From the NCBI GenBank assembly GCA_030704615.1, contig CM060733.1, positions 25,048,001 to 25,112,000 of the forward strand: 64,000 nucleotides of DNA. Reading direction: 5' to 3'. The position numbers and the translations under genes were made by a program. The notes under the pieces are model-generated. The model ran no database searches. It was not told the origin of the DNA and worked only from the letters and a program-made list of their open reading frames with translations. Source of the stretch: Takakia lepidozioides. Taxonomy: Eukaryota; Plantae; Bryophyta. Positions 5,131-56,946 of the stretch are shown here, piece by piece (position 1 is the stretch's first letter; every line of letters starts with the position of its first letter).

Positions 5131-5387
5131 GAGAGTGCAGTGGAGGAAAGGAAGCAGACAGCGGATTCAAGTGCAGACAGGAGACGGGAAGGAAGCAGAG
5201 CGTAAGGGAGAGCGGTGGAAGCTTAAGGGTCAGGCGTTTCAGGTCAGCAACAGGGGCACCGAAATGGCTCACGCATCTAGCAGGTAATGTTTTCGTTTAC
5301 GCATGTGGTTTGATGTCATTCTCTCTTGCTCGCTTGTCATTCTCTCATTCTCTCTTTGTTCTGTTTGTTGATTTGCTTTTCTTTTTG

Positions 5388-17900: not shown

Positions 17901-18172
17901 GATTCATAAAACTTTCGCCTTCTCCGGAAATATATGTCGGACCCATCGCACATCTTGTCGATGTTGCCTCAAGCTATGAATGATGGTCAGCTGATGGCTG
18001 AACCCGAAAAGATTCTAGAAACGCGAGTGAAGCACCTGCGCAACTGTTCTTGGAAAGAACATTTAATTAAGTGGTTGCATTACCCAGAGACAGAAGCTAC
18101 TTGGGAAAAAGAGAATGAACTAACATTGAATTACCCCTCATTTTCTGTCATTGAGGACAATGACCTGCCTTT
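14901..18172 (+). mobile_element. 5'-truncated chromovirus-type Ty3/gypsy pol (partial protease, RT, RNase H, integrase, chromodomain), pseudogenised
   Basis: DCILG; [32 protein letters not shown]; TDARD...AYES...THEKE...TDH; H-x6-HPG...CFPC; SMDFI...VVDRLSK; RFCGPF; EPEKIL...HLIKW..YPETEATWE. There is a stop at 15761 and several frameshifts; no gag or 5' LTR. Confidence 0.96.
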
Positions 18173-34945: not shown

Positions 34946-37505
34946 ATGGAGAGCGGCCCAAATCCTCATTGGTGGATATCAGCGCTAACCAGTGTGACAC
35001 AACCTGGACCACAATCTGGTGACGAGTATATGTTCACTATGCATCATGGACCTCCTGAAGAACTACACAACAGGTATTAGTTTGTGGATGATGACTTCAA
35101 CCTTGCATCTTCAGTTGCATTATATAGCAGTGGTGTTCTAACCCTGTCAAAATTCTGAAAAACCTGTTCTCATTAGGACATGTTTCTTTGAAGTATCTGT
35201 AAGCCATGACAAATTTTGAATCAGTTCAAAATTTGTAACTAGGGGTTTTGAGTCGTGCAGGTCAGCAGGGTTGCATCAGGGGCAATTGTTTTATGGACAT
35301 CCAACTGGCAGCCCCAGTAGGACCTTTACAATCACCACCAGTGTTAAAGTAGGACCAAGTGAGGGACTTCACAAGGTTACAACTGGGGATGGTGGGGATG
35401 TGATCACACTGTGTGAGAAGGGAAGACTGAAAGAGGCACTGCACATCTTGGATGAACAACGTGTTCAGGCAGACTCCAATATTTATGTCTGTCTCTTGCA
35501 GGGGTGCATCAGCATGAGAGCCCTGGCAGAAGGAAAGCAGGTGCATGCCTACATTATCCGAAGTCAATTGAAGCCAAGCATAATTGTATTCAACACTCTT
35601 GTCGACATGTATTGGAAATGTGGGAGTATAAGGGATGCGTGTCAAGTGTTCGACAAAATGGCCGAAAGAAATGTGTTCTCATGGAATGTAATGATTGCAG
35701 GTCATGTGAAGTATGGGCAAGCCAAGGAGGCTTTTAAAATATATGAGCAAATGCGACGAGAAGGGGTGACGCCCAACCGGATCACTTTCATTTGCATTCT
35801 GAAAGCTTGTGCCAGCCTGAGAGCCCTGGAAAAGGGAAAGGAGGTCCATGCTAGCATCATAAAATCTGGAATCCCATCACAAGTTAATTTGGAGAATACC
35901 CTTGTTGACATGTATGCCAAATGCGGGAGTGTAATAGATGCATGTGAAGTGTTCAACAGAATGACCAAAAGAGATGTTGTCTCATGGAATGTAATGATTG
36001 CAGGACATGTTCAGCATGGCCTTGGTGAAGAGGCTCTCAAAAACTATGAGAAAATGCAACAGGAGGGGGTGATGCCTGACATGGTCACATTTATTTGTAT
36101 TCTCAATGCAAGTGCCATCCTTGGAGCCCTGGAAAAGGGCAAGCAAGTCCACGCTGATATCATTAAAGCTGGAATTGTGTCAAATATTATTTTGGAGACA
36201 ACCCTGGTTGATATGTATGCCAAATGCGGGAGCGTAAAGGATGCACGTCAAGTGTTTAACAAAATGAGTAAACGAGACGTGATTTCATGGAATGCGATGA
36301 TCACAGGATATTCTCAGCATGGACATGGTGAAGAGGCTCTCAAACTTTTCGAGCAAATGAAGCAGGCAGGGTTGAAGCCCAACAGCATCACGTTCATTTG
36401 TGTCCTCAATGCATGTGCCAGCCTAGGAGCCTTGGAGAAGGGCAAGGGGGTCCATGTTGACATCATCAAGACTGGAATTGCTTCAGATACTATTTTAGAG
36501 ACATCTCTTGTTGACATGTATGGCAAGTGTGGGAGTATAAAGGATGCGCGTCAAATATTTGACCAAATGTTTAAGCGAAATGTAGTCTCCTGGACTGCAA
36601 TGATGGCAGGATATGCTCGGCATGGGTGTGGTAGGGAGGCACTCCAACTATTCGAACAAATGCAAAAGGAAGGTTTTAAGCCTGACAGGGTAACCTTCAT
36701 TTCAGTTATCTCGGCATGCAGCCATGTGGGTCTAGTGGATGAAGGCCTTCGCCACTTCCATTCCATAAGTCAAGATCATGGCCTGGTGCCTACACTAGAG
36801 CATTTTGGCTGCCTAGTGAACCTACTTGGCCGTGCAGGGCGATTGGATGATGCAGAGGATCTCATCAATAAAATGCCATTCAAACCAGATGCTTCGGTCT
36901 GGGGATCTTTGCTTGGTGCCTGCCGAATTCACGGCGATGTAAACATAGCAGAACGTGCCGCAAAATCCATCGTCAAGAGGGATCCTCAGCATGCTGCTGC
37001 CTATGTGCTGCTATCGAACATCTATGCTGCAGCTGGCAGGTGGGATGATAAAGCAAAGGTGAGAAAAATGATGGAGGATAGAGGTGTCAGAAAGGAGCCA
37101 GGACGCAGCTGCATTGAGGTCAACAACCGAGTGCATGCATTTGTCGTTGACGACAAAATACACCCTCAAATTGGGGATATCCATGCTGAGCTACAGAGGT
37201 TGTCTGTTCGGATGAAGGAGGCTGGATATGTGGCTGACACTCGCTTTGTGTTGCATGATGTGGAGGAGGATCAAAAGGAAATTTCTCTGGGCCACCACAG
37301 TGAGAAGCTGGCCATTGCTTTTGGGCTCATCAGCACACCCCCTGGAATGCCTGTTCGGATAGTCAAGAACCTTCGGGTCTGTGGTGACTGCCACACTGCC
37401 ACCAAGTTCATCTCAAATATTGCTGGGCGAGCTGTTGTTTTACGGGATGCACACCGCTTTCATCACTTTACAGATGGGATCTGTTCCTGTGGGGATTTTT
37501 GGTGA
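34946..37505 (+). CDS. PLS-class PPR protein with E and DYW deaminase domains (organellar C-to-U RNA editing factor)
   Basis: 744-codon ORF 35271-37505 with PLS triplets, E domains, PG box PGRSCIEV, HSEKLA, CGDCH and terminal DFW. A probable first exon 34946-35073 splices in frame to 35261; the start is less certain than the body. Confidence 0.96.
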
Positions 37506-38140
37506 AACAAGCAACGTGCATTGTGGAATTGTCCCACTTACATACATGAAGGCAGGCAGTTGAGAATTTTGTCTATCCGAACTCCTGCCACTAAATGCTA
37601 CAGTCAGTTACTCCCTTATGGGCTATTGAACAGCAGCAGTAAACTCAGTCCTCAAAGATTGCTAGGACAACCATGGGTGGAAGTTCTGTAGTAGTTGCTG
37701 AAAGGTTGCACCCAGGGAGGGAACCATGATTGATGTGCGTTCTCAACCAGTTAGGGTGGGTTGTTGGATTGCAACATACTCATTGCAAGCATGCAACCTT
37801 GCTTAGTGGGGTTTACTAACTGCTGAGGGGGTTTGTGTTCAAGTACATATATTTCAATCCAAGCCCAGCATCATACGGCAACCACAAGGTTCATCTTTCA
37901 TGGCTCCCCTCAACTCCTAATGGTGACCTCTCCCATCTACAGGCTTCAGATTCCATCCTGTCAAAAACAGTAGGCTCGCTGCTACCGAGGAGGTTCACAT
38001 CATTACAACTAATGTCTTCCTTCAGGAGCAACAAACAATGCAGTTGCAGATTTACTACGATGTTTTTTCTGGCCTTCCAGAACCCCACCCCCACCCCCCC
38101 CCATTTACAAGGAACTATCAGCATATAATATCTAGACAAA

Positions 38141-39764
38141 CCTTAATGCTAAAAGTAGCTTGGACCTCAAAGTTAGTTATAGGTAGTTTTGACTAGGCAC
38201 TACCTTAATGCTACAACTAGCTTGGATCTTAACCCCTAAACTATGCCCACAACTGCCTTAATGCTACAAAATAGTTTTGGATCTTAACCCCTAAACTATG
38301 ACTACAACTACCTTAATGCTACAAGTAGCTTGGATCTTAACCCCTAAAGGATGCACACAACTGCCTTAATGAAGTTAGCTTGGATCTTAATCCCTAAATG
38401 ACGACTACAACTACCTTAATGCTACAAGTAGCTTGGATCTTAACCCCTAAACGAGGATCACAACTACCTTAATGCTGCAAGTAGCTTGGACCTTAACCCC
38501 TAACGATGATCACAACTGCCTTAATGCTAAGTAGCTTGGATCTTAACCTTTAAACGATGATCACAACTACCTTAATGCTACAATAGCTTGGATCTTAACC
38601 CCTAAATGATGACTACAACTACCTTAATGCTACAAAAAGCTTGGATCTTAACCCCCTAAACGATGACTACAACTACCTTAATGCTATAAGTAGCTTGGAT
38701 CTTAACCCCTAAACCATGACTCCAACTACCTTAATGCTACAAATAGCTTGGATCTTAACCCTAAGTGACGACTACAACTACCTTAATGCTACAAATAGCT
38801 TGGATCTAAACCCCCTAAACGATGACTACATTAACTACCTTGATGCTACAAATAGCTTGGATCTTTAACCCCTAAATGACGACCGTAACTACCTTAATGC
38901 TACAAATAGCTTGGATCTTAACCCCCTAAACGATGACTACATTTACTACCTTGATGCTACAAATAGCTTGGATCTTAACCCCTAAATGACGACTGCAACT
39001 ACCTTAATGCTACAAAAAGCTTGGATCTTAACCCCCTAAATGATGACTACAACTACCTTAATGCTATAAGTAGCTTGGATCTTAACCCCTAAACGATGAC
39101 TCCAACTACCTTAATGCTACAAATAGCTTGGATCTTAACCCTAAGTGACGACTACAACTACCTTAATGCTACAAATAGCTTGGATCTTAACCCCCCTAAA
39201 CGATGACTACATTAACTACCTTGATGCTACAAATAGCTTGGATCTTTAACCCCTAAATGACGACTGCAACTACCTTAATGCTACAAATAGCTTGGATCTT
39301 AACCCCCTAAACGATGACTACATTTACTACCTTGATGCTACAAATAGCTTGGATCTTAACCCCTAAATGACGACTACAACTACCTTAATGCTACAAAAAG
39401 CTTGGATCTTAACCCCCTAAACGATGACTACAAATACCTTAATGCTATAAGTAGCTTGGATCTTAACCCCAAACGATGACTACAACTACCTTAATGCTAC
39501 AAATAGCTTGGATCTTAACCCTAAGTGACGACTACAACTACCTTAATGCTACAAGTAGCTTGGATCTCAACCCCCTAAACGATGACTACATTAACTACCT
39601 TGATGCTACAAATAGCTTGGATCTTAACCCCTAAATGACGACTACAACTACCTTAAATGCTACAAGTAGCTTGGATCTTAACCCCTAAACGATGATCACA
39701 ACTGCCTTAATGCTACAAATAGCTTGGATCTTAACCCCTTAATGACGACTACAACTACCTTAAT
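38141..39764. repeat. ~53-bp tandem satellite, ~30 copies, with a 7-mer (~380 bp) higher-order repeat
   Basis: Consensus ACTACCTTAATGCTACAA(A/G)TAGCTTGGATCTTAACCCCTAAA(C/T)GA(T/C)GACTACA; the variant CTAAGTGACG recurs at 38761, 39141 and 39521. Confidence 0.97.
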
Positions 39765-40067
39765 TCTAGCCCGCCAAAAAAAATGCCACTAGAACTCGTC
39801 GTGCCAAGTTTTTCGGAGTTGCCCCGGACTGCCTGATTCTTGATCTTCTTTGAACTGCAGGAGGGGTTTCACATGCCTATCGCAGTTGCAGATTATGAGT
39901 ACATCGCATGAGCTCTCACAGATGGTGGGACAACCGCAATCACAAAGTGTGGTTTTTCTTAATGTACGATGTGAAGAAGTTTGTCCATCCTGCAAATGTG
40001 GGCTCTTAGTACCATGATTTGGTATTCTTCCTTATGTTTACAAGGTTCTGGGGCGACTACAGCTTGG

Positions 40068-40386
40068 TGTCAAGTTATTTCACCACTAGTGTGAAACTAG
40101 CTAGAAAATAGCTAGTTTTTACATATTGACATTTGGGATGGGCCCAAGTGTCAATCCAGGGATCAAGGCAGATTTAGGCCCTGGAGTGGTTATCTTCACG
40201 GCAAGCGCGGGAGGCTCATCTTTCTCGAGTTGAGCCTCACCGCGCCTACCTATGGCGCCGTAATGTGGATCCCCATGGCGTGGGGTGCACTGGCTTGACT
40301 TGTTATTTGAGTGATGAGGTTATTTATGCATGAGTTATGCTTCACCTTTGTGAGCTCGCATGAGCTTGTGCTTGTATTCTTCTTCT
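40068..40386 (+). repeat. Terminal repeat A, copy 1 (direct repeat of 50890-51234)
   Basis: Near-identical ~320 bp from tgtcaagttatttcaccactagtgtgaaactagctag to gcatgagcttgtgcttgtattctt. Confidence 0.95.
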
Positions 40387-41799
40387 TTATCACTCGAGAA
40401 AGATGAGCTCGTATCTGTGAGTGTCAGATATACGAGTTAGTTTGTAGCACTTGTGGTTTTGCTTGAGAATGAGAGAAACCAGGTTGTTATGCAAGGAGCA
40501 CCATGGAGCTCTTGGTTGTTAGAAGTAGAGGCGATGTGGGTTACGAGGTGGTAGACCTTGGCATTCGATCTTCAGCTTCAGAGATGCAAAACACCATGCT
40601 GAGGTAATTCCAGAGACCTTGATGTTTCAAATTGTGTACATGCATGACGCAAGCACGATTGGGAAGAGGACCAGTCAAAAGCAGATTATAGGGCTTGGTG
40701 GCAAAGCTGAGAACTGGACTTGGGAATGCGAGCTTTCATTGTGTGAAGGATTGCAAGAACAAGCGAAAGGGCTGATTTGGCTTGGGGCAAATCAGTGCAC
40801 TGTGTGGAGTATGTTGAGATTGGGTTCAATCTCGAGTTCAGCATTGAGAGGGCTCTTGTCATGGCAAGAGCAGGGTTGGAACAGGAGCTAAGAGTGGCAA
40901 CAAGGCCATGGATGTGCACCTAGGGTTTCAGAGCTGGGAAGAAGAGCTCTGCACCACAAGAGAGTGTTTGTGGCCGGCGAAATGTAAGCTTAGGGTTCAG
41001 GAGCTTGGCAAGGGCTGTGGAGTGCTTAGTCTTGTCTTAGAGAGCATAAAGGAGTAAGGAGCCAAGATAGGGGGCTGATACCTCTTGTGTGAAGAGGTTG
41101 CATGTGTGGAGCATGTATCAGCTCATTGAAGCTTCCATCTTCAAGCTTGGAGGGCAAGCAAGAAAGGAAGGAAGGGGCTGGTTCCCGTAGGGCATGTCTG
41201 GAGCATGCTTCCCCCCCGGAAGCGGTGTATTTTCAGGTTGGTGGGGGCAAGAAAGAAAGCAAAGGGGCTGATTCTCTGGTGGTGAGAGTGGGGCATGTGT
41301 GGAGCATGCCTTCAGTCCATGGGCTTTTGTTTTCAAGCTTAAAGAACTAGAAGAGAAGGTAAGGGGATGATTGATCTTATGTGATAGTCCGACACTTGTA
41401 GAGCGTGTTCTGAGTTGGGGTTTCAACCTCAAGCCTAGATAGAGCATGCTCTTGAAGTGGCAGGTGTGTAGGGCTGGGAATTAGGCTCTAAGATAGATGC
41501 TGGCCAAGGGAACGCTTGAATGAGTGCTCACAAGGGCTGGAAACCAGCAAGGCTTGGTTGTTTGCCATTGCAGTTTAGTGGCGTGTTTGGGTGAGTCTAA
41601 GTGAGAAAGAAGGCTTGGTTTGGGGCAACCATCTTCCTCATGGCTTAGGGGCTACTATTGGTGGTGTGTTGGGAGCCGAAAGAGCAGAATACCTTGCTGA
41701 TTCTTCACAGCCGCCATAGCTCGGTGCAAAGAAGCCTAGAGTCCAAGAGACACAAAACCCTAGTTGGGCGTGGCTAAAACCTTGGGAGAAATGGTAACG

Positions 41800-42600
41800 T
41801 CATGAGTGGGCCTGTGGGGCTGTGACGGGCTTGTGAGGGGATGGTGATAGGCTGTGGCCTTTGGGGCTGGACCCTGTGACCTTGTAGGGCTGCGACAGGC
41901 TGTGCCTATGGGCCTTGGGGTTTGTGATTGGATTGGACAGGCTTGTGTGACAGACCTGTTGGCGAGCTGTGGGTGTGTTGGCTGATGGGCTGTGAGGGCT
42001 GTGTGGGGGCTGTTTTTGTTTGTTGTACAGGCTAGGGTGTGCACAGTGGCCTGTGGGGATGTGAGGGCTTTGAAGGCTCCTGCCCCTGTTGCCTGTGGGG
42101 CGTGACGGGATATAAGGGGCTGTGACAGGCTAGTGTGTGTGGTGATCGGGCTGGGGATGGGCATTGTGGCGGGCTGGACAGGCGGTGTGCCCGTGTGTGC
42201 AGGTGTGGGGGGCTATGGAGGGGCTATGAGGGGCCGAGACAAGATTTTTGTTTTTTTTTTTTTTTTTTTTTTTTTTTGTTTTTTGTGTTGGCGGGCTGTG
42301 ACTGCTGTGACTGGGCCGTGGGCTGTGCGGGCTATGAGGGATGTGACCCTGTGACTTTGTAGGGCTGTGACAGGCTGTGCCGTGCCTTTGGGGTTGTGAT
42401 GGCTTGTGTGACAGGCTGCGGAATGTGGGGCTGTGCTGACCCGTGACAGTGTAGGGCTTGTTTGGGTTGACAGGCTGGTGGCCTGTGTGGGGCTGGGTGA
42501 CGGTGCGGTGTGACCAGTGAACATGTGGGCTTGTGATGGTTGTGGTGGCCCGTTGACCTGTGGACGGCTGTGTTGACTCGGGAGGCACCGGTGGACTGCC
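41800..42600 (+). repeat. G/T-rich low-complexity array of GGGCTGTG(AC)-like motifs with a poly-T tract, in the element's leader
   Basis: Many GGCTGTG/GGCTTGTG motifs; internal duplication 41870-41955 vs 42345-42415; poly-T at 42245-42285. Confidence 0.8.
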
Positions 42601-43440
42601 TAAGATGGACATGTGGTATTGAAGGCCGGAATTTTGAAGCTCGTGGAGGGCGGCTGGTTTGCGAGTATCTTCATGATATTCCCATGGTCTATGCAAGTGA
42701 GGGAGAGAGGAGAGGAAAGAAAAGTTTGGGATGAGGCATGCTGGGTTAGGCATTGCTTTAGCTTCTCTTTCTCGTAGTTTCCACCTCTCATTAGCCCAAG
42801 ACCTTTCCGTAGGTAGAGGAAAGAGTCAGTCCGGGTTGGGCTGGGGGTGTCCATGCAGGAGCAACACGTGGAGTGTGTTTGGGTGGGGGAGTTGTCGTTT
42901 GATTTCTTGTGTTGGACATCCATACCTGCATGCTTGACTGTGCGCCATGCTAGTTTTGTGTGGGCGCTTTGTTTTTGTATAGGTGATTGGCCCGGGATTT
43001 GATCACCGGCCAGTCCTAGAGCATGCTGTCGTGGTGAGGCTGGGGGGGTGATAACCAGCCAGACCATCATTGTTCTCATGTGGTGAGGTGGAGGTGGGAT
43101 GACAGCCAACCATAGGAGTGCTTGCGGTGGCTGGATGCATGGTACAGGGTGCTATGTTCCAAACCATAAGCCGCAACAGGTTCCTACCCGGTTTACCTTG
43201 TGGAGAGGGGGTTAGGGACATGTTCATGACCGGTTGAGTGTCAAACACGGAGGTGCCACTAGTTGCTGGGGACAGTGCCGATTCGAGCACTAGCGATACT
43301 AGTGGGTACACGAGACGAGGTGTGCGGTTTAGGCCACCTTCACAACCTGGTGTCTCAACGGAAGGTTCTGATTCGGATGTGAATCAGAGGACTCATACCG
43401 GCGGTTGCAAGTTGTTTCCTTGCCATTGTTGTGGGACACA

Positions 43441-44640
43441 ATGGAGGAGATGTATGGAGCTATCAAGGGGCCACGAAGGTACTCTGGGGTGGTGGGCACC
43501 ATCGAGTTGGATGATTTTATCCAAGAGTTTGATAGTTGGTTGGATTTGCAGCAAATGCGCAATCCACAACTATTTACGCCTTTCATGGCATGGAAGGGGT
43601 TGTTTCAGCACCTTGAGGGCCGCCTTTGGATGATACCAGAATTAAGGCGGGGGGCATGAGGTTGAGATCGAGGAGTGGAGGATGTACTGGTCACCCGACT
43701 ATGTCTCCATCACTAGGCGCTAGAGCCACGAGGGCAGTGGGCTACACCTGCCGCTGCCACCAGCAGCTTCAACAAGTAGCAGTGGGACTAGTGGGACTCT
43801 GGTACAGTAGCTACGACGTCCACCCAAGCCACTACCGCACCAGCACTAGTACACGTGCCTGCCTTCAACCCTGTTGTGGAGTTCTCGAAGAGTTGAGAGG
43901 GAACTACAAGGGGTGATGACAGAGAAGTTGCGGAGCTTGCAGAGTTTCCAACGGAAGCCGACCGATGAGAGCTTGAGGGAGGTTTTCACTCGCATGAGGC
44001 GCTTGATTAAATGTAACCCAAGGGTTACGGAAGCTCAGGCAGTCCAAATTCTGGTATGGGATATTGGACAAGGAGCTGAGGAGAAGGGTGCGGGGGATTG
44101 CAAATCTCCTACAAGCGACCCAACCCACCTTAGCAAATGTGTTTGTTTTTGCTAGTGGTGCTCCTAGCCAAACCACTACCTCAAGTGGTGCTCCTAGCCA
44201 ACCACTAAAAGTGCTCAAGGGGGGCGGGGCTCAGGTGAAGCTCAGGGAAGGGCAGAGAGGACCCTCAGATGCCGGTCTCTCCCTTCATTTGCTGGCCAAC
44301 AAAGGGCGGATGTGGTGTGCTGGACATGTGGAGGACCCCATGTCAAGAGGATTGCCCAGAGGGAGGCAAAGGGCCTGCACAGTTGCAGTGTGGGCATTGT
44401 GGCAAGCACGGGCATGGAGAGGCCCAGTGTTATGGTTTGCATCCTGAGTTGCGCCCAGGCCAGTTCCAAGGGAACAATGGTGGCGGGGCGAGGTGGAGCA
44501 GCCAGAGAGGACGAGGTGGTCGGCCACGAGGTGCAGGCCAAGGGCAAGCTCAACATGGCCAAGGACGCGGAGGTCAGGTGTTGACCAAGGCATGGCCAAC
44601 CGGCTTCAGCAGCTAGAGCAGAGGCTCGCTGCCATGGCTA
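43441..44640 (+). pseudogene. gag: gag with two zinc knuckles
   Basis: MEEMYGAIKGPRRYSG...LDDFIQEFDSW; EKLRSLQSFQRKPT.ESLRE; CWTCGG.H....C at ~44318; CGHCGKHGHGEAQC at ~44389. Confidence 0.85.
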
Positions 44641-45364
44641 CAGCTCAGGTGGTACCGGCTCTAAGGCCGGATGGTCCACCTCCTGTTCCTGAGGGAGGAG
44701 GATATGGGAGGCATGGGATTCATGTGTGGAGCAGCACTACCATAGTGCAGGTGGAGTCTGCTGCAGCCGTGACTCGAGAGCAGCACGAGTTCCTGAGCCA
44801 CGAGGTGTAGAGGTGGAGTTGGATTCACAGCGTGGGGAGGCAAGCCGTCAAGCTAGGCTTCCTCAGTCATTCACATTGGTGGAGACAGTGTCGACGCCAT
44901 CCATGGCACCTAGTTCTCGCCGACTGTTACCGAGGCGGAGGTTACTATGCCATTGGGGAGAGCTACACGGGTAGCACCACTACCTAGTGTTGCCAAGGCT
45001 ACGGCAGCTAGTGTGCTGCTAGGAGCGGCCACATCTGTGTGCCAGGCTCCATTGTTCTCGGCTACCATGATTGCGACGCCGGGGGTAAGACCAGCTGAGG
45101 TGTTCAGGCTGGCAGCTACACTCTGTGAGAGTGGGGAGGTTACTTCATCTTCTGCGGAGATAGTGGGAGGTGTAGTGCCGGAGGGATCCTCGGATTTGAG
45201 GGTCAAGACTGCCACGGCGGCGCCATGGCAAGCTGCAGCTGTCAGGTTGATGAGCTGCCAGCTAGGCCAGCCATTGAGCGCGCCATGGTGACACCTGGAG
45301 TTGTCATGTTAGACAACCAGGATGGCATTTTCTGTTTGAGTGGACCGGCAGGCAAGAGGTACCG

Positions 45365-45700
45365 GCCACTGCGGGTCTGTTGGACTCGGGAGCTCAGCCA
45401 TTGATGCTAGGCAGAGCTGCTATTGCAGGCTTGGGCCTCACGGAGGGGATATGGAGCCTTGTCCTTTCCAGATACAGACGTCTCTGGGAGGATCGGAGCA
45501 GGCTCGGGGCATGACACGGCGTGAGTTGGCTATCAGACTACGGCCGGATCACCCTACAGATGGCTCAGTGATGCGAGCCAAGGCCATTGTGACAGACGCG
45601 GTCTCATACGATGTCCTGGTTGGTGGGGCAGTGTTGTACCCCATGGGCTTCACCCTGGATTTTTGGGAGGAGTCAGCTTCCTATAGGCCTGCATGGCAGT
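45365..45700 (+). pseudogene. Retropepsin aspartic protease
   Basis: LDSGAQ active-site motif (GAC at 45383) and downstream SYDVLVG. Confidence 0.85.
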
Positions 45701-46091
45701 CAGGGGAGGGCCGGCGTGTGCAGCTCCCTGTGACGTTCATAGGAGGAGTTGCGGTTGCCCAGCGAGGCAAGATGCCGACACTAGCAGCATTCCAGTGGCA
45801 GTGAGTTGGCCTAGAGAGTTGCTTGAGGGCAACGCTCATTCAGAGGATGTGCCACCTCCGGGAGAGCAGGATGACATATGGTATGGCGGAGTTGCCTACC
45901 ATGGTTGCTCAGACTCCATTGTGGGGCACGAGCAAGGATTTGCAGCGGGATGCTGATCGACGGGTGCAACAAGCCTGGGTGGAGGCTTTTGTACCGTCAG
46001 GAGAGGAGGAGAGTGTGGGATTGCACCAGGACCACCTCAGTTGTCTCCATTGGACACCACACCTATTGTGTGGCAGTATCCGGATGAAGGC

Positions 46092-47030
46092 ATTTGTCTT
46101 CTGGACTTGTTTGGCGGGATCAGCACCGGATTGGCTGCTGTGTTACAGGCAGGTGTACGAGTTCGGCGTTACCTGTATGTGGAGAGGGATGAGACTGCAC
46201 GACGCGTTTCACTTCGCCATGTTGCTCAGTTGGTGCAGCGGTACCCTGAGTTGTTGTCGGTGTCTGCAATTCGTGGATATCAGCAGGCCTTGCCAGCAGA
46301 CATTTCGTTGCTGGGGGCGCAGGATTTGGAGCGGGTTGGCTCCATTGATCTGGTAGTGGCAGGTTGGCCCTGCCAAGGGCATTCATCAGCCGGGCATGGC
46401 AATGGATTGCGAGACTCGAGGTCGGGTCTGTTTTGGGAGATGGTGCGGGTTTTGCGCCACTTGCAGCTTCATCAAGCTGTATCTCCAGCATACATCTTGG
46501 AGAATGTGCCACTGATGGGCGATTCTCGGGCCAGGGTGATGGCCAGTGTGCATCAAGTCCGGTCGTGGCTTGGGTCAGCAGTGTTGCTAGATGCAGCTAC
46601 AGTGGGGTCACGGGCTCATCGTCCACGGCTATGGTGGACTAACTTGATGCCACCCGCACTGCTCAAGCGTGCATTTGATGGGGTGCAGCGGCCAGCACAT
46701 CTCACAGTGGATAGCATTCTGGACACAGGGAGGCAGTCTCAGCGTGTGAGACACGATGACCGTTTGCCTTTGGCAGTGGTCAACAAGGTGGGTCAACCAC
46801 GAGCAGCATTACCTACACTGCTCAGCTTCCCAGGATCGCATGCTTTCCGGGATAGTGGACCTGGCCTCCTGTGGGATGCTCAGTTGCAGCAGTTAGTGGA
46901 GCCTAATGCTGACGAGCGTGAGCGGGCAATGGGTTTACCACTGGTACCACGGCGGTGTCGTCTCTTTCTGAGGCATCACGTCGTCAAGTGTTGGGGCAAG
47001 CAATGGATCTCAATTGCTTGACCTGGATTA
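46092..47030 (+). pseudogene. C5 cytosine DNA methyltransferase catalytic domain, DNMT3-like, inside pol
   Basis: Motif I LLDLFGGISTG, II YVERD, IV DLVVAGWPCQ (Cys 46371), VI ILENV (46500), VIII AHRPRLWWTN, IX ERERAMG.P, X RRQVLGQAMD. One frameshift near 46940. Confidence 0.93.
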
Positions 47031-47479
47031 TCAGCTTGGCTATGGCTGAGCAACGCAGAGTGCGGAGTACACTTCCCTCGATGGTCTCTCTGCCTACCGA
47101 GACGGTACAGGCAGTGAGTGGGGGCGAGCATGTGAGGACCATGGGGTGCATGCATCCATGGCACACGTGGGAGGTGCTCGAGGTTCAGAGGGAGTTGGCA
47201 GCCAAGGTGGCGATGATGGATGAGGTTGGGGATTTTTCTCGGGTTGAGGAAGTCCTGAGGATGAGATGATGGGGCAGGATGAGGCCTTGTCATTGACTGA
47301 GCAGGTAGGGAGTACTGCTCAAGAGGTTGCAACATAGCAACCACTGGACGCGTCCTCTACCTCTAAGCCCACTGGACTTAAGGTTGCAGTTACGGAGGAC
47401 AATTGGGAGCCTGACATTGGACCCATTGTCACCGGAGGAGAGAGACGAGACGTATACGGCGGTTCCTGAGGGCTTACAT

Positions 47480-48825
47480 GAATTGCTTTGCCTTCAGTTT
47501 GAAGGACTTGGGAGCACTGAAGGGTCAAGAGATCCGTATTGAGTTGGCCACTGACACGCCAATCTTTCGGAGACCCTATAGATACAGTGACATGGAGAGG
47601 TCTTTGATTCAGATGAGGACTCAAGATCTCTGGGAGGCAGGTTTGGTGGAGCTCTCTGGTGGAGAGTATGCTTCAGCCACAGTGATGCCAGCCAAGAAGG
47701 ATGTCTATGGCAATTGGACGGAGAGACGTATGTGCGGTGATTACCGGCCTGTAAATCGTCAGACCAAGTCCGATAAGTATGCCATGCCAACACCAGAGGA
47801 GATCTTTGATGCCATCGGGCATGCTAAGGTCTTTAGCACTTTGGATTTACGATATATCACCAGTTGCCAATCAAGGAGGCGGACAAGCAGAAGACGACAT
47901 TCTGGGGGATCAATGAGCACGGCAAGGATTGCCTATATCAGTGGCGGTTCTTACCATTTGGGCTTAAGAATGCTCCTGCAGAGTTTCAGAGAGTCATGGA
48001 TAGGATTCTAGCAGGGGTGGACTTTGCTCGTGCTACATAGATGACATCATCATCTTTAGTGTTACGATGGAGGAGCATGAGAGACACCTTCAGGTGGTAT
48101 TGGAGCGCTTGAGAGCGCACGGATTGAAGTTGCATCCGGGGAAGTGCAAGTTTTTCCACAACCAGATTGAGTATCTGGGTCATATGATATATCCTGGAGG
48201 ATTGGGGGTACAGCAGACTAAGGTAGAGGCCATTGCACAAATTCCACGCCCCACGGATGTGAGCCGAGTTCGAGCTTTCATGGGGTTGGCAAACTATTAT
48301 AGACGGTTTGTCAAGGGATTTAGTACCATTGCAAAGGCTCTAACCAAGCTGACCAAGGTGGACCAGAAGTGGCAGTGGGAAGATGAGCAGGAACGAGCTT
48401 TTCAAGAGCTCAAGGCGAGGTTGACCTCGGCGCCTATCCTAAGACGACCTATCAGGGGCGTCCTTTCAGCTGCATACGGATTGGAGCATGCTGGGGCTTG
48501 GAGCGGTGCTCACACAGGTGGATGATGAGGGAAGAGAGTTCGTAGTGGCTTATGCTAGCCGCTTAAACAACGCTGCAGAGGCTAAGTATAGCTCATATGA
48601 GGGAGAGTGCTTAGCTGCAGTGTGGGCCGTGGCACACTTCAGGTGCTATCTATACGGCAATCTTTTCACCCTTGTCACGGATCACCAGCACTCAAGGTTG
48701 ATGGAGTCAGACAAGCTTACGGGGAAGCTTGCACGGTGGGCACTCATACTCCAGGAGTATGACTTTCAGGTGTGCATCGACCGGGTTTGGTCAATCGGGA
48801 TGTGGATGGATTGAGTCGCAATCCA
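47480..48825 (+). pseudogene. pol: Reverse transcriptase and RNase H
   Basis: RRMCGDYR, FSTLDLR, LPFGLKNAPAEFQ, YIDD (~48035), IEYLGH; FQLHTDWS..GLGAVL, VAYASR, SSYEGECLA, VTDHQ, DVDGLSR. Confidence 0.95.
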
Positions 48826-49209
48826 TGCATGAGCCAGCAGGATGACACTGGAGCTCGGTGGCATGGTGAGACGGACGAGGAATGGTGCCGGGATGGCACG
48901 CATCTGCATTTTTGTGTATCTTGGCATCGGGAGGTCAGGTTGGACCTACAACAGGGATGACTGTAGACGGAGTGTCTGAGGACCCTGAGGCTAGTGATGA
49001 GCCAGGTGGTGCCAGAGATATACATGAGGATTCGGCTGTGTTGGACTACCTCCGCACGGGAGACACGACAGCCACTGTGACTGCCCAGGGAGAGGGATCG
49101 GATCCTGCAACGAGCCAAGAGGTTCAAGTGGGAGGGGATATACCTACTTTGAGTGTGGGAGGATGGTCGGGTGAGGATTGTGCCTCACCCCACAGCGTGC
49201 ACGGTTAGT

Positions 49210-50240
49210 GCGACATGCCCATGAGGAGTTGGGCATTTTGGAGTGCGACGCACTCACAGTTTACTGCAAGGGCAGTATTGGTGGTGTGGTATGCATACAG
49301 AGGGCAACAGTTCGTGGCTAGGTGCATGGGTGTGACAGGGTGCGTGCTTCATTCAACACCCCTACACCACAGTTGCTCCTTTACCAATCATGGGATTGGG
49401 CTACAGGTGGAGTCTTGACTTCGCAGGACCGTTGCCACTGACTATGCGCCACCACAGATATGGTTGGTGATGGTGGAGCAATTCTCCGAGTGGATTGAGT
49501 TGGTTCCATTGCCTGACAAGGCTAGTGAGGGGGCTGCGTATGCATTCTTGGATCGTGTACTTAGCCGATTTGGTGCTCCAGCTGAGGTACTCACGGACCA
49601 GGGAGAGAGTTCTGGGGGAGTTTCAGGCTTTGTGTGATAAAGCCTTGATAGACCACCGCACCACTTCTCGGGATTATCCTGAGGCCGATGACTTAGCAGA
49701 GAGAGTTGTTCAGACGGTGAAGAGGGGTTTGCGCAAGTATGGCTTGCAGAAGGGATACCTAGGAGATTGGGATCTTCGGGTTCCTTGGTTAGCCATGGGC
49801 TACAGGTTCAGCAAACAAGCATCACTTGCCTCCTCTCACCATATTTCCTTCTCTTTGGCCGAGAGTTGGATTTGCCTGCAGCCATTCGTAGGGACACTGC
49901 TCAAGTCCTCAACCTTGATGATCCGGACGTGTGGGTACGTGCATGTGATCAGCGTGCAGAGTTGTTCAAGAAAGTCATGCCCATGGCTTTTGAGAACCTT
50001 GCCATTGCACAACACCGTGATACGTTGAGGTATGCCACTATACGTGGTGGAGGATATCGTCCTGGGGTTCGGAGGTTTAGCCTGGTGACTATGTTTATTT
50101 GCAGCAGACTGCTCCTACGACTCTAGATGTTACTGCAGGGCGTGTTATTCTGAGGGTTCAAGAGGTGTTGCCCTCAGGGGTCCTGATCTTGAGGGTCGGG
50201 ATGGCATGACTTGGAACCATGTGCGTAATTGTGCGCCATG
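49210..50240 (+). pseudogene. DDE integrase
   Basis: HEELGHFG...YWW...C..C zinc finger; WSLDFAGP; RFGAPAEVLTDQG; DDLAERVVQTVKRGL. Confidence 0.92.
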
Positions 50241-50302
50241 TCACCTTCCCAATGTCGATGGCGGAGTTGACCCAAACTTGGCAGTGGTGTACCTGTTTGA
50301 GG

Positions 50303-50436
50303 TGCATGCTCTGTGGGTCTGCCAAAGGGGCACCACCATGTTGGTGTGTGATCGATGCTCAAGGGGTTGGCATATGGGATGCTTGACACCACCTCTTGAG
50401 AAGGTTCCTGACGGAGATTGGTTGTGTCCACACTGC
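50303..50436 (+). pseudogene. PHD finger (C4HC3) at the integrase C-terminus
   Basis: CMLC...(frameshift)...MLVCDRCSRGWHMGCLTPPLEKVPDGDWLCPHC. Confidence 0.92.
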
Positions 50437-50700
50437 TGGATAGTGGCAGTGGACATGACTGGAGGCAGCTAACAAGACATGGAGGCCAAGCTCATAGGAG
50501 TCAATACATGAGATCCCAAGCTCAAGTTCACAAGTGCAAGACGGCGACTAACGATGGGGCAACTCTTGCACCCGGCCTCTTGATCTATCGAGTTTGAGTG
50601 TAGTAGGGATAGTGGTGGAGGACTTAGTGAGGCTATGGTCACTATCACATCTTGTGGCTATCTGGACTTAGAGGGACCTAAGCACCAGCTAGGGGGCGAT

Positions 50701-50887
50701 TGTGTGGACTAGTGACTGCCATAGTGGGCAGCATAGTGGCAGCCTAGTGACTGACTAGTTGTAGCCTAGTGGTTGGACTAGTGCTGGACTAGTGGTGGAC
50801 TAGTGGTATACTAGTGTGTGGTGTGCACATGTGTTGTGTGGTTTTGGACAGCGATGTAGTTGTGTAGCAATATGTATGCGCACGACA
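50701..50887 (+). repeat. Terminal repeat B, copy 1 (TG...CA, 187 bp), preceded by a PPT-like AGGGGGCGA (50691-50699)
   Basis: Direct repeat of 52971-53151; rich in (A)CTAGTG motifs. Confidence 0.92.
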
Positions 50888-50889
50888 GC

Positions 50890-51234
50890 TGTCAAGTTAT
50901 TTCACCACTAGTGTGAAACTAGCTAGGAAATAGCTAGTTTTTACATATTGACATTTGGGATTGGCCCAAGTGTCAATCCAGGGGTCAAGGCAGATTTAGA
51001 GCCTGGAGTGGTTATCTTCACGACAAGCGCGGGAGGCTCATCTTTCTCGAGTTGAGCCTCACCGCGCCTAGCTATGGCGCCGTAGTGTGGATTCCCCATG
51101 GCATGGGGTGCACTTGGCTTGACTTGTATTTGAGTGATGAGGTTATATATGCATGAGTTTATGCTTCACCTTTGTGAGCTCGCATGAGCTTGTGCTTGTA
51201 TTCTTCTTATTCTTATTCTTATTCTTATTCTTCT
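50890..51234 (+). repeat. Terminal repeat A, copy 2, ending in a (TTATTC)n expansion
   Basis: Matches 40068-40386; joined to B1 through the palindrome GACAGCTGTC. Confidence 0.95.
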
Positions 51235-52970
51235 TCTAACATGACAACTCCAGGTGTCACCATGGCGCGCTCAATGGCTGGCCTAGCTGGCAGCTCTATC
51301 AACCTGGCAGCTACAGCTTGCCATGGCGCAGTCGTGGCAGTCTTGACCCTCAAATCCGAGGATCCCTCCGGCACTACACCTCCCACTATCTCCGCAGAAG
51401 ATGAAGTAACCTCCCCACTCTCACAGAGTGTAGCTGCCAGCCTGAACACCTCAGCTGGTCTTACCCCCGACGTCGCAATCATGGTAGCCGAGAACAATGG
51501 AGCCTGACACACAGATGTGGCCGCTCCTAGTAGCACACTAGCTGCCGTAGCCTTGGCAACACTAGGTAGTGGTGCTACCCGTGTAGCTCTCCCCAATGGC
51601 ATAGTAACCTCCGCCTCGGTAACAGTCGGGCGAGAACTAGGTGCCATGGATGGCATCGACACTGTCTCCGCCAATGTGAATGACTGAGGAAGCCTAGCTT
51701 GACGGCTTGCCTTCCCACGCTGTGGATCCAACTCCACCTCTACACCTCATGGCTCAAGAACTCGTGCTGCTCCTCGAGTCACGGCTGTAGCAGACTCCAC
51801 CTGCACTAGTGGTAGTGCTGCTCCACACATGAATCCATGCCTCCCATATCTCCTCCCTCAGGAGCAGGAGGTGGACCATCCGGCCTTAGAGCCGGTACCA
51901 CCTGAGCTGTAGCCATGGCAGCGAGCCTCTGCTCTAGCTGCTGAAGCCGGTTGGCCATGCTTTGGTCAACACCCTGACCTCCGCGTCCTTGGCCATGTTG
52001 AGCTGCCCTTGGCCTGCACCTCGTGGCTGGCCACCTCGTCCTCTCTGGGCTGCTCCACCTCGCCCCCGGCCACCATTGTTCCCTGGGAACTGGCCTGGGC
52101 GCAACTCAGGATGCAAACCATAACACTGGGCCTCTCCATGCCCGTGCCTGCCACAATGCCCACACTACAACTGTGCAGGCTGTGCATGTGCCGACCCTTT
52201 GCTTCCCTCTGGGCAATCCTTCTTGACATGGTGTCCTCCACATGTCCAGCACACCACATCCGTCCGTTGTTGGCCAGCAAATGAAGGGAGAGACCCCTGC
52301 ATCCGAGGTCCTCTCTGCCCTTTCCTGAGCTTCACCTGAGCCCCCTTGTTGCCTTGAGCACGTTGAGGTAGTGGTTGGCTAGGAGCACCACTACCCTGTG
52401 GTGTCTCCTTAGCAAATCCCACCATGATCACTCGTTCCTCCACCATGTTGAGCTCTATCCGCTCTGCCAGCAAAAACACATTTGCTAAGGTGGGTTGGGC
52501 AGCTTGTAGGAGAGTTGCATCCCGCACCCTTTTCCTCAGCTCCTTGTCCAATATCCCATACCAGAATTGGACTGCCTGAGCTTCCGTAACCTCTTGGGTT
52601 ACATTTATCAAGCGCCTCATGTGAGTGAAAGCCTCCCTCAAGCTCTCGGTCGGCTTCCGTTGGAACTCTTGCAAGCTCCGCAACTTCTCTGTCCTCACCC
52701 CTTGGTAGTTCCCTCTCAACTCTTCGAAGAACTCCACAACAGGGTTGAAGGCAGGCACGGGTACTAGTGCTGGTGCGGTAGTGGCTTGGGTGGATGTCGT
52801 AGCTACTGTACCACTAGTCCCACTAGTCCCACTGCTACTTGCTGAAGCTGCCGGTGCAGCGGCAGGTGTAGCCACTGCCCTCGTGGCTCTAGTGCCCCTA
52901 GTGATGGAGACATAGTCGGGTGACCAGTATATCCTCCACTCCTCGATCTCAACCTCATGCCCCCGCCTGA
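51235..52970 (-). mobile_element. Inverted copy of the gag / gag-protease linker (corresponds to 43643-45313)
   Basis: ORFs 52165..52875(-) and 51225..51737(-) reproduce peptides of 43.7-45.3 kb(+), e.g. MPLGRATRVAPLPSVAKATAASVLLG. Confidence 0.96.
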
Positions 52971-53151
52971 ACTAGTGACTGCCATAGTGGGTAGCATAGT
53001 GGCAGCCTAGTGACTGACTGGTTGTAGCCTAGTGGTTGGACTAGTGGCTGGACTAGTGGTGGACTAGTGGTATACTAGTGTGCGGTGTGCACATGTGTTG
53101 TGTGGTTTTGGACAACGATGTAGTTGTGTAGCGATATGTATGCGCACGACA
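52971..53151 (+). repeat. Terminal repeat B, copy 2 (lacks the first 7 nt of B1)
   Basis: actagtgactgccatagtggg...tatgtatgcgcacgaca matches 50708-50887. Confidence 0.95.
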
Positions 53152-53542
53152 TTGGTCTTAGCAGGCCATGTTTCAATCTATGCCCGCTTTGCTGCACCGT
53201 GGTGGTTCTCAGAGCCGCAATCCGACATTACCTAACTACAAACACAAGTAGCACACACAACCGAGAAACCAAGTGAAAGAGAGAGAGAAACTTGCACTTT
53301 TTATTAAAGAAAAACTAGGGTAGCCTGTGCCGTGGGCCCAAGTGTCCAATGTCATCTATGTCCAAATGCAATCCCCTATGTATCTAGAGACCCCACAGTT
53401 TGGGAGATCTAGGTAGCTTGCAGGACCATTGGCCCCCATTGGCCCATGTGTGCAGAATTGAAATCTAAGCCCAAGTGCAATCTCCTATGTATCCATGTGC
53501 GTCTCCCATGTAGAGGCCCAAGTGCGACCTCTAGTGTCCAAT

Positions 53543-53912
53543 GTCATCTAAGTCCAAGTGCATCAATATATGAAGCAAGCCATATCTAATCATTTTTTTT
53601 TTTTCACAAAGCCTACGAACAGATTTGAACCGGAGACCTTCCCTTGATATCTCTCATGTCTAGGCTCCAACCATTGTCCCAAGAATGCCCACTTTGCTAT
53701 TTTTGGGGAATTTCCAGCGACCTAAAGTACTTGAAATTCCATATCTCCCACACCGTAGGTCCAAAAATCATGAGACCAAGCACGTGCACCCCCTCCTCCT
53801 CATCATCTAAGTCCAAGTGCATCAATATATGAAGCAAGCCATATCTAATCATTTTTTTTCCACAGAACCTACGACCAGATTTGAACCGGAGACCTTTTCC
53901 TTTGATATCTCT
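53543..53912. repeat. ~112-bp direct repeat (53543-53655 and 53801-53912)
   Basis: tcatctaagtccaagtgcatcaatatatgaagcaagccatatctaatcattttt...agatttgaaccggagacctt occurs twice. Confidence 0.9.
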
Positions 53913-54233
53913 CCCCTCGAGGTTCCCATCATTGTGCCAAGTAAGCCTGTGATGCATGATTCCAGCGCAGCAAGCGTGGGAGATGGTGGGGCCCGCTGGC
54001 CTGAGCTCAGGGAGGCTCGGGAAGACTACTTGTCAAATGTCTTCCCCATTGTGAAGGTGGGGAGCGCTCCACACCTCCTGCTCCCTCCTCACACTCCCCA
54101 CCTTTAGGACCATGTTCCCCAACATTCTCCAATTTTGTTCCCCTATTCCCGGTCCAAGATCCTTGCTCCCCATACTATAACAGGGGAGTGGGGACCGCGA
54201 ATAGGGGAGCGAGCCACATTCCACAGGGCAAGT

Positions 54234-54400
54234 AGGGGAGCGGGGTCGGAACCGGGAGCGAGGAGGGGAGCGAGGTCAGGAAACCAGGGGCGAGGAGGGG
54301 AGCGAGGTCAGGAAACCGGGGGCGAGGAGGGGAGCGAGGTCGGGAACCGGGGGCGAGGAGGGGAGCGAGGACCGGGAACAGGGGAGTGAGCCGTGTTCCA
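54234..54400. repeat. Purine-rich ~31-bp minisatellite
   Basis: GGGGCGAGGAGGGGAGCGAGGTC(A/G)GGAAACC-like unit, ~4-5 copies. Confidence 0.85.
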
Positions 54401-56946
54401 TGGGGAGCGGGGACCAAGAACAGGGGAGCGAGGACAAGGGACAGGGATAGGGGAGCGGAATTGGGAACAAGGAGGGGACAGAGGGAACAAGGGAGCGTAG
54501 CGACGATCTTGGACTTAGGATTATTTTGGAGATGAAAAAATATATCAGTCCCATGTGCTACCTACCTATCAGCTGACATGACTATTCTGCCAAGATTGAA
54601 GCTCAAACCTCATCTTAGCAAGACACATCACCTAGCCACCGCACTACCATCTATGTCTAGCATTACACTCAATTTCCTAATGCTTTAATCTACAAATACG
54701 GGCTCGCAGGTGAGAGGGGAGCAAGGAGTGGGGATTTGACAGTGCGCCCTGCCGGAACGTTGCCGGTATGGCCATCCCCGGCGACCTTACTGGCAAGGCT
54801 CCCGCGGTTGCATTCAACTCGTCGGGTAAGCGTAGTCTTAGGTTCAAAGTTCAAAGCTCACCGAAATTCCATTTCCCGACAAAGATAACTTGGTTAAAAA
54901 AGAAAAAGAAAAAACTTGGTTTTTTAAATCCCCTAAGACACACTCACGGCGAGTGTGCCTTGGTTATTACGACATAAGGCACACTCACCGTGATCAGTTA
55001 TTGAACGAGCCATACTTCCATAAAGGAGATGTCGAAGAACTAAGTGTCACCACTCAGTTCTCTAAAACCAAGGACCAATATAATAAAAAATAAATAAAAT
55101 AAAACTACCATTTAGAGATCCAAGAAACTTAAGAACCAACAGCGCTTAAGACACAAACTTATGATGCTACAAAGAGAAGGGACCTTGCTAAAAGGCCTGC
55201 AGAGTCCAAGAAGTCCAAGTCCAAGAAGTCTATCTACGCGATGCAACCAAGGAAGGCCTTAGATGTGTCCAGTTAACGTCCCTGTCGAATTAGGGGGGAC
55301 ATTCTGGAGGGGGGTGCGGAGATCTCTCTATGATCCTCATTTACCTTTAAAAAAAATGACCTCGGTCCTCCGTCCTTTCTCTTTATTTATTTTATTTTAT
55401 TTTTCAGAACAGGGGACAAGCCTGGCCCTGAGGAATTTTATTAATAAAAAAAGGGCTCTTAATAAAGTTTCGAGGGCTACTTCCCTGTGATGATGAGATT
55501 CCCCCTTCACTTGTTTTTTCGCCTTAGATGAATGAAAGAGGGATATCAAAGGGATGGACGGAGTTAGGATGTAATTTGGATGAATTTTTACCTAATGCAT
55601 GAGGTTGAGCTGGGAGCAGCTTACGGCTTTTATTATATGCTGTCTTATTTTAACAGCTAGTTTAGGATTAGATTAGGATGGAATTGGATGATGTGGCTTC
55701 TTTCTATGGTCAGGCTGGAATGACATCTGGCTGACCTATGTGGAAGTGCCACATGGCATAGGGATTGGATTATGACCTAATGCTATTTAAACTACATTGC
55801 CGTGGCAGCAAGGGTGGTTTTTGCTCTCATCTTTGTACAACTGCTGAGTGACGGCGTGCTCAAGTGCTTGCATGAAAGTTGTGCGGATGTTTTAGTCTTG
55901 TTGCGTAAGATTCCGTCTTCTCCGCTTGGCTTGTCTACCGACTACATTCCCATGGTAAAGTTGAGCCCGGTAGAGGGGGAGGAACAAACCCATAGCGCCG
56001 GAATCATGCATCACATCCCCTTGTTCTATTTTTATAAAATGTTTTGAAAAGAAAGTTCAGAAAAACAAAATCAAAATCAACAATTGCAAATGAAGCAGCA
56101 CTGGAGGCTTAGGAAGCGTTGGAGAAAATGGGGAGTTGGTTGGTTGTTTCTTTCAGCACAAGGATGGTGCAGAGGGACAATTGTTGCAGCAGCTGCAGAT
56201 GTGAAGTTGTATTGAGAAGATGACGAAACAGTGACAATTTTGGAATTTGGGAGGATCATGTTTGCTTGTCAGGCATTTTTGGTTGATTGAGCAGCAGGGC
56301 AACAGCCCGCATTGATTTGTCAGTTGTTCAGTTGCTGTTCGGTTTTACACTACTGTAGTGTAGTGTAGAGATCGCATCAGAATTTGACAGAATGGGTCAA
56401 GGGGAGCATTCAGACTTTGACTGAAAGGGTCAAGGGGATGTGCTCCCCTGACATGGGTGGGCACTAGGGGAGGCAGAAGAGAGATTGGTTGGTGGGCCCA
56501 GACCCGCCAGTGTTTTGGAGTGGCAGCGAGCTAGCGAGGATGCGCGATGGCGTGTGGAATGCAGTTGAGCAGCTTGCGGAAGGAGGGTAGTCAGGGCAGC
56601 ACCAGCCATGGCTCATGGCCTGGGCAGATTTGTGACAGATTTAGAGCACTCGTGGCCGGGGGCCAGCTGACCAGCAGGCCCCGAGAAATGGGGGTGGCAT
56701 CAGCTGTTGCGGGACCCAGTACGCTACTCATGGAAGCATGTCCATGCTGGAGGCACACACTGTCAGCTCCTTGTCTATCTCGAGACACTGTGGATGTTGT
56801 GTAGCGTGTCTCTCTCTTTTGCTGGGGCCCAGGTTGTTTCTGTCTCACATGGGCCCTCTGTGGTCGTTATAAGTCTTTTTCTCTACTTCTTTCTCTGGGT
56901 AGTTGAAATTCTTGCCAATAGCGCGGTGTAAGTAGCGAGTTTAGAA

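Follow-up and report, generated by a model that had tools for sequence, protein, structure and literature searches.

Split direct repeats in the order A1...B1-A2-B2 have been described for PAT, TOC1 and Ngaro, elements that carry a tyrosine recombinase (PMC4157794). The legend to Fig. 4c of de Mendoza et al. 2018 (PMC5890265) gives the repeats of KnitGypsy-Dnmt3, an element of Klebsormidium nitens with gypsy domains and a cytosine methyltransferase in its polyprotein, as arranged in the manner of DIRS elements, an order that the same paper writes as A-coding-B-A-B; the group is called Gypsy-DNMT3 in a 2026 preprint (10.64898/2026.05.21.726589). The available text and legends of PMC5890265 give no palindrome, target duplication, primer site or mechanism for KnitGypsy-Dnmt3. 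Here we analyze a retrotransposon with this layout at 40068-53151 of a 64,000-nucleotide stretch of the Takakia lepidozioides genome (GenBank assembly GCA_030704615.1, contig CM060733.1, positions 25,048,001 to 25,112,000, forward strand; hereafter the window, to whose numbering all coordinates refer). We propose that the element would have been inserted through a palindrome lying inside its long terminal repeat (LTR), while the ends made by reverse transcription would have been fused to each other. We place the probability of this route as a whole at about 60%; that the palindrome, and not the reverse-transcribed ends, is what gets inserted we regard as very probably correct.

Like KnitGypsy-Dnmt3, the Takakia element combines a C5 methyltransferase within a gypsy polyprotein with DIRS-like repeats, and K. 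nitens protein P0168 shares with it the order methyltransferase before reverse transcriptase (RT). It differs from KnitGypsy-Dnmt3 in residing in a land plant and in containing an inverted gag insert. DIRS-like repeats on a gypsy element are already known, and it is for the palindrome and the mechanism that we found no published account: a full-text literature search, with subscription journals and Repbase reports outside it, showed no paper, among the matches listed, on the palindrome, 4-bp duplication, self-priming or insertion route of this family. One other described element, Gypsy-7a_cRei (PMC9940879), has LTR subparts and a PHD finger; it is drawn with two LTRs, and we did not match it to the family.

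The unit begins with TGTC (40068) and ends with GACA (53151), with a copy of TTGG on either side; of duplication lengths 2-6, 4 alone matches. Its ends are built from two repeats. A1 (40068-40387) and A2 (50890-51211) differ by 11 substitutions in 317 aligned letters (3.5%), and B1 (50701-50887) and B2 (52971-53151) by 5 in 180 (2.8%). BLAST of 39001-54500 against the whole window placed B at 50701 and 52971 only, with none near the 5' end. The palindrome GACAGCTGTC occupies 50884-50893, spanning the B1|A2 junction, and is the one match within the element among three sites in the window with the pattern GACAnnTGTC. Alignment and BLAST thus bear out a preliminary description of the window that had recognized A and B as separate repeats, the missing 5' B and the perfect palindrome. 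Its starts for A1 and A2 also hold, but the extents it gave for A require correction: A1 truly ends at a CA at 40391-40392, and a TTATTC slippage tract (about 51205-51234) has taken the place of the last bases of A2. The first 7 nt of B1 have no counterpart in B2. That TGTC...GACA termini sit inside a target duplication was likewise right for the 4-bp TTGG, while the 5-bp alternative that it allowed, TTGGT, finds no counterpart in relatives, which show 4. The host flanks have no long reading frame running across the insertion point, and an empty-site comparison gains nothing from them. The left flank at 40053-40063 looks like the end of B plus GC just before the duplication; this likeness is probably due to chance, as no such pattern was seen by eye beside 12 relatives. 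The features of the element are as follows (L numbers denote related loci, introduced below).

40064-40067, plus strand: left target-site duplication TTGG (4-bp duplications also in L010, L024, L025 and L041)
40068-40392, plus strand: A1, right part of the conventional LTR (B-gc-A), from the TGTC palindrome half to CA
40214-40229, plus strand: predicted self-primer, the 5' end of the RNA, its sequence complementary to that at 40393-40408
40393-40408, plus strand: putative primer binding site of the self-priming type, directly 3' of A1 (16-nt perfect reverse complement)
40409-43430, plus strand: leader, 3 kb, G/T-rich
43431-45340, plus strand: gag, frameshifted (by inspection like Marchantia proteins P0003/P0004)
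45341-45740, plus strand: aspartic protease region, broken (tblastn with L023 ORF1 residues 713-833; PF13650 on L023)
46062-47056, plus strand: C5 cytosine DNA methyltransferase domain (PF00145, E 3.6e-13)
47463-48772, plus strand: RT and RNase H, frameshifted (PF00078, PF17917)
49193-50436, plus strand: DDE integrase (zinc finger, core) and C-terminal PHD finger, frameshifted (tblastn with L023 pol)
50690-50700, plus strand: purine tract plus two bases (AT) preceding B1
50701-50887, plus strand: B1, left part of the conventional LTR, TG...GACA
50884-50893, no strand assigned: palindrome GACA-GC-TGTC, candidate integrase attachment site, kept in five families
50890-51234, plus strand: A2, 3' end replaced by the TTATTC slippage tract
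51235-52973, minus strand: inverted copy of the element's own gag region (source 43642-45313), at the A2|B2 joint
52971-53151, plus strand: B2, without the first 7 nt, ending in the GACA palindrome half
53152-53155, plus strand: right target-site duplication TTGG

The domains run gag, protease, C5 DNA methyltransferase, RT, RNase H, DDE integrase and PHD finger, all of them broken by frameshifts, and identify the element as a decayed Ty3/gypsy-type retrotransposon. Gene order, a DDE integrase with zinc finger, a primer site with a purine tract, TG...CA termini (TGTC...GACA) and a 4-bp duplication, within the range of 4-6 bp, all agree with this class; the exception is that two full flanking LTRs are lacking, the ends being A and B. 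PF00628 (PHD) was matched on the window itself, and none of 14 frames tested from the leader matched a Pfam family. L023, a relative with open frames, has a pol that carries PF00078, PF17917, PF17921, PF00665 and PF00628, an intact integrase triad (D692-D752-E787) and, as its best solved relative, Ty3 Gag-Pol (E 4e-98). No Pfam match to a tyrosine recombinase turned up in the frames scanned from the element or in either of the long open reading frames (ORFs) of L023, a negative that a decayed gene in the 3-kb leader of the window would escape; the leader of the L024 family is only about 1.1 kb. The element has the repeat order in common with PAT, TOC1 and Ngaro but departs from them in its DDE integrase, 4-bp duplication, primer site and purine tract. 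The view that split repeats typify tyrosine-recombinase elements and not gypsy elements with a DDE integrase, as the preliminary description had put it, stands for the PAT-like order and gives way here on the enzyme. That description had the layout right and had missed the methyltransferase.

Named relatives come from Marchantia, Calypogeia, Riccia, Sphagnum, Closterium, Klebsormidium and chlorophytes. The methyltransferase domain is 72-76% identical to its four best matches, three of which are named liverwort proteins, and the nearest named proteins to the RT piece are again from liverworts (69-77%), with K. nitens at 32-50%. In an RT tree (140 columns, 31 rows, omitting L003 and L064, which had a short match or none) no supported set includes the window, and the lone outgroup is misplaced. 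Viral contigs scanned with the methyltransferase and with the integrase yielded no relative. In the integrase core of this family (L023 residues 752-787), 34 residues separate the second D from the E in 124 of 130 stored proteins with a match to the pattern; the usual spacing is 35 residues, one more than here. In L023 a single in-frame stop (L023:5083-5086) separates the gag-protease-methyltransferase frame from the RT-RNase H-integrase-PHD frame, which hints at stop read-through.

The ends of related copies bear on whether the split layout belongs to the family. Relatives comprised 63 metagenome loci found with a methyltransferase alignment and two loci found with the L023 pol; the 63 were searched with the two repeats of L024, A and B, and 19 loci were mapped on L024. 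Left ends were seen in 14 rows, 12 of them distinct (two duplicate pairs), and all 12 begin at a TGTC of A (L029 reads TGAC) next to unrelated flanks, none with B upstream. Ten of the 12 continue into the primer site and leader; in L010 the end starts at TGTCA, 11 nt before the A end, the inside of A being lost, and in L002 the exact A end joins a pol fragment. Right ends were seen in 11 rows, ten distinct, and all ten stop at the end of B: five have the form purine tract-B-A-B (L016, L024, L041, L048, L064), three purine tract-B (L009, L010, L025), and in two a broken interior leads straight into B (L014, L028/L034). Among the five relatives with both ends, four are flanked by an exact 4-bp duplication, each with a chance probability of about 1 in 256, and the fifth has one mismatch. 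The order A...B-A-B with 4-bp duplications thus recurs at independent loci, and we conclude with high confidence that the split layout is genuine and belongs to the family itself. This tabulation of order, junctions and duplications had been proposed in the preliminary description, and its outcome favors the first of two models offered there, native split repeats with an unusual replication or priming route, a model that also fits the DIRS-like repeats reported for KnitGypsy-Dnmt3 (PMC5890265, Fig. 4c legend). The second model, in which B is itself an LTR and the locus a tandem dimer, is contradicted by the left ends and by the finding of no B...B element among the 63 loci.

The joints inside these copies are equally regular. 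Where A2 meets B2, L016, L024, L041 and L048 read CA-[G/A]T-TG, the two middle bases being those found after the purine tract. Copies with faulty joints break at the same places: in L028/L034 pol is broken off and joined to T-TG-B, in L014 the A end is followed by 10 nt that match the primer site at 9 and then by GT-B, and both retain the start of B to within 1-2 bases, the preceding sequence being broken. L014 has an inverted gag piece of its own near the 3' end (L014:4923-5819), set in a patchwork of pieces from A, gag and leader that is joined to B. L002:1676-2354 holds a complete A ending at CA, then a 330-bp pol fragment, then pol; this may be a faulty mirror form that arose through use of the right palindrome. 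A CA-nn-TG sequence had rightly been read in the preliminary description as the form of a circle junction; the B|A palindrome does matter, but a second CA-nn-TG joint, at A|B, which matches the ends of reverse transcription, had gone unseen.

Host short reads are compatible with the same boundaries. Contig cover begins at 40068 with mixed upstream sequence that ends in the end of B (19 contigs of run X1, agreement 0.56). In run X6 one contig stops at 40392 and another begins at 50699, and depth rises from about 75 beside the repeats to 142 on B and 150 on A, contig depth being no copy number; such break points are in keeping with an A|B joint that is common in the host family. No clean A|B joint of the host family was found among the 17 of 103 loose-end rows listed. 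The family is abundant, with more than 32,000 short contigs of one host run mapping to 3.3 kb of element plus flank. No RNA sample was listed as containing the stretch, a result with no bearing on expression.

Some relatives were used for motifs and not for end counts, namely L023, L040 and L065, which have palindrome, A and leader in a row and could represent collapsed assemblies (in L065 the ends overlap by 127 nt). L064 and L065 are a eukaryotic retrotransposon on two contigs of a cyanobacterial genome bin (G001), probably through contamination; in L064 the two B repeats, B1 and B2, show 100% identity, which makes that family young. Two further G001 loci with one-mismatch palindromes, L070 and L071, were dropped because no pol match lay nearby.

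Several signals within the LTR and beside it are shared more widely. In the window, the L003/L024 family, L021, L064/L065 and L040 the palindrome has the sequence GACA-GC-TGTC, in L023 it is GACA-GT-TGTC, and it is kept across five families (window; L003/L024; L021; L023/L064/L065; L040). Conservation of the B start across families does not match that of the palindrome, which in L040, whose RT piece is 37% identical to that of the window and groups with chlorophyte proteins, is all that BLAST finds shared in the LTR region. Directly after A1, the 16 nt at 40393-40408 are the exact reverse complement of 40214-40229 inside A (fold z -7.7), and a fold-back site occurs at +1 after the A end in L017 and L024 (16 nt each), L023 (15) and L065 (12), its partner lying 160-174 nt upstream in these copies and the window alike. 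The preliminary description was right that there is no tRNA-type primer site, and missed this one. L017, L023 and A2 of L024 have TATA-like boxes at about 26-28 nt above the primer, and a G-run precedes B in L021, L023, L024 and L064. In Tf1 the 5' end of the RNA serves as primer and pairs with a site after the LTR, and the geometry found here suggests self-priming of the Tf1 kind, with RNA pairing and cut predicted. Self-priming has also been described in the plant elements Tcn1 and TAR (PMC6317226). Tf1/Sushi and Tcn1 resemble our element in their RT-RNase H-integrase order and in a primer site complementary to their own LTR; they integrate, however, with a full LTR at each end, whereas here the LTR is split at the palindrome, and a PHD finger and a methyltransferase stand in place of their chromodomain.

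We reasoned from these positions that the true LTR would be B-gc-A. The RNA would start inside A1, fold onto the site after A1 and self-prime the minus strand, as for Tf1, and the purine tract would prime the plus strand; because the primer site is at the A end and the purine tract at the B start, the standard LTR scheme would produce ordinary linear DNA, nn-B-gc-A-internal-B-gc-A. In integrated copies the ends found in the chromosome differ from these reverse-transcribed ends. We therefore propose that integrase would cut GACA-GC-TGTC of the left LTR after each CA, that both palindrome halves would be joined to the target with a 4-bp stagger, the central two bases being lost, and that the outer ends, A-CA and nn-TG-B, would be fused, most likely by host end joining, either before insertion (as a two-LTR circle) or after it. 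Fusion of the two reverse-transcribed ends would account for the CA-[G/A]T-TG joint at A2|B2, and the faulty joints at the A end or B start (L028/L034, L014, L002 and the window) point to free ends at these places. Clean fusion would give A...B-A-B, loss of one LTR copy A...B, and faulty fusion scars such as the inverted gag copy.

Several considerations weigh against this route. It is read from integrated copies alone, with no step observed, and the positions of RNA start and end are predictions from sequence. At an exact-match threshold the primer match is 9 nt or absent in eight of ten L024-family relatives. A two-LTR circle has two palindromes, so A-B-A...B copies are also expected, yet there are no clean cases against five B-A-B ends, L002 alone being a possible faulty one; an extra rule favoring the left palindrome must therefore be assumed, for which our guess would be that the left LTR is finished first in reverse transcription. 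All end-counted relatives but L064 represent one family from related metagenomes and are not independent evolutionary samples, and L064, with its B-A-B right end, has an A end that is not definable. Finally, a clean A2|B2 joint in the host's own family is deduced from contig break points only.

The window copy itself has a scar at this joint. What the preliminary description had left as [x] between A2 and B2 is a 1.7-kb inverted copy of gag 43642-45313, bordered by 3-nt microhomologies, TCT (51235-51237) and ACT (52971-52973), with a few bases lost on each side and the TTATTC filler. Between the two gag copies there are 42 substitutions in 1539 letters, of which 32 are transitions, and 29 gap events in the two parts compared, many of them 1-bp indels; about 85 bases near 44130-44240 are absent from the forward gag and retained in the inverted copy. 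The inverted copy deviates from the family majority at 26 listed sites (from the 40 rows listed of 243); at 20 of these the forward copy has kept the majority letter, at 3 it shares the private letter and at 3 it is gapped. Because the differences are rich in transitions and the forward copy carries the majority letters, the inverted copy has aged on its own, and because the A pair, the B pair and the gag pair (2.6-3.0%) have diverged to similar degrees they form one age class. Ordinary gag runs on past 52973 in 24 X1 contigs, and no listed host short-read contig bridges the exact arrangement or the private joints of the window locus. The inverted copy is, as far as seen, a private scar of this locus. 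A later random insertion would rarely strike the A2|B2 joint in an 11-kb element. Autointegration was rejected as its origin, as it would invert the region and not duplicate it.

Part of the regularity of the joints could arise by other means. In a templated route like that of DIRS or PAT, RNA would extend to the end of B2, B1-A2 would splint a circle, A2|B2 would be inherited and the DDE integrase would insert at the palindrome. Such a route shares its A1-B1-A2-B2 order with PAT and Ngaro (PMC4157794), and would explain the uniformity of the four A2|B2 joints and, with no extra rules, the exclusivity of A...B-A-B. We nevertheless consider it unlikely, since it needs neither primer site nor purine tract and yet several families have both, exactly where A ends and B starts; B2 begins at the predicted plus-strand start, where faulty joints also cluster (L014, L028/L034 and the window), another faulty joint lies at the A end (L002), and with TATA-like boxes inside A the RNA would begin elsewhere than at the first base of A. 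Alternatively, RT at the right end could switch to the left end of the same molecule and recopy B, the integrase then using the outermost palindromes. This explanation agrees with ours that the internal palindrome is the attachment site, and it would produce the same clean CA-GT-TG joint and an inherent A...B-A-B bias, make host end joining unneeded and, through template switches, possibly yield the patchwork of L014 and L002. Microhomologies, small deletions and filler are a trait of polymerase-theta-type joining, and the window joint, with microhomologies on both sides, small deletions and slippage filler, fits break repair better, which makes such a jump improbable too.

Accounts that confine the layout to this one locus fare far worse. 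A private rearrangement in the window copy, and two bases before the left duplication that resemble the B|A junction, would suit a single accident in an ordinary LTR family, such as a tandem dimer or nested copies cut at a cryptic TGTC; the ends of relatives fall at the same two points in 12 of 12 left and 10 of 10 right cases, and host contigs start at 40068 with mixed upstream sequence, so we hold this to be very improbable. It is just as hard to credit that a fold-back or chimeric read created the inverted gag and the split layout. The many 1-bp indels among the gap events, and private joints bridged by no listed contig, are what an assembly error might leave, but a fold-back would match its source save for read errors, whereas the gag copies differ mainly by transitions and the forward copy has the majority letter at most of the listed sites; moreover, the whole unit lies inside one 4-bp duplication.

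If insertion through an internal palindromic site and fusion of the outer ends is correct, it would bear on how integrases choose their substrate. For retroviruses and LTR elements the ends of linear DNA are the accepted substrate, and two-LTR circles are mostly seen as dead ends. Foamy virus integrase reportedly cleaves the junction of two-LTR circles. HIV-1 integrase cleaves the palindrome at the two-LTR junction in vitro (PMC1905944), so that in both viruses, as in the proposed route, a DDE integrase cuts a palindromic CA-n-TG inside continuous DNA; there the palindrome is the LTR-LTR joint and the reaction a side route, whereas in this family it is a fixed LTR-internal site found at the ends of every examined copy. 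A family ending at an internal palindrome would thus be a natural system in which a route other than that of linear ends is the rule, and would mean that split direct repeats can be reached from an LTR without a recombinase. On a broader scale, we put at slightly better than even the odds that a green-lineage gypsy clade, from chlorophyte-like to liverwort and moss members, moved its integrase site to an LTR-internal palindrome, cutting of continuous DNA and end joining becoming obligate and a DIRS layout arising with no recombinase. The family is tractable for testing, with relatives in Marchantia polymorpha and two long open frames in L023; surveys that require two flanking LTRs (as in PMC6317226) would overlook it in spite of its abundance.

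Elsewhere in the window, a second, different gypsy element with protease, RT, RNase H and a Tf2-type SH3 domain occupies 13200-18000. An open frame of 761 codons at 35220-37505 encodes a pentatricopeptide repeat (PPR) protein with E and DYW domains, for which there were two hits at E 1e-100 (65% and 52%), and a tandem array of about 53-bp units (38125-39770) lies immediately left of the element. Inverted and direct repeat pieces at 3443-5616 and 10946-11892, 5.5-8 kb apart and 86-96% alike, are perhaps another rearranged element or a duplicated gene.

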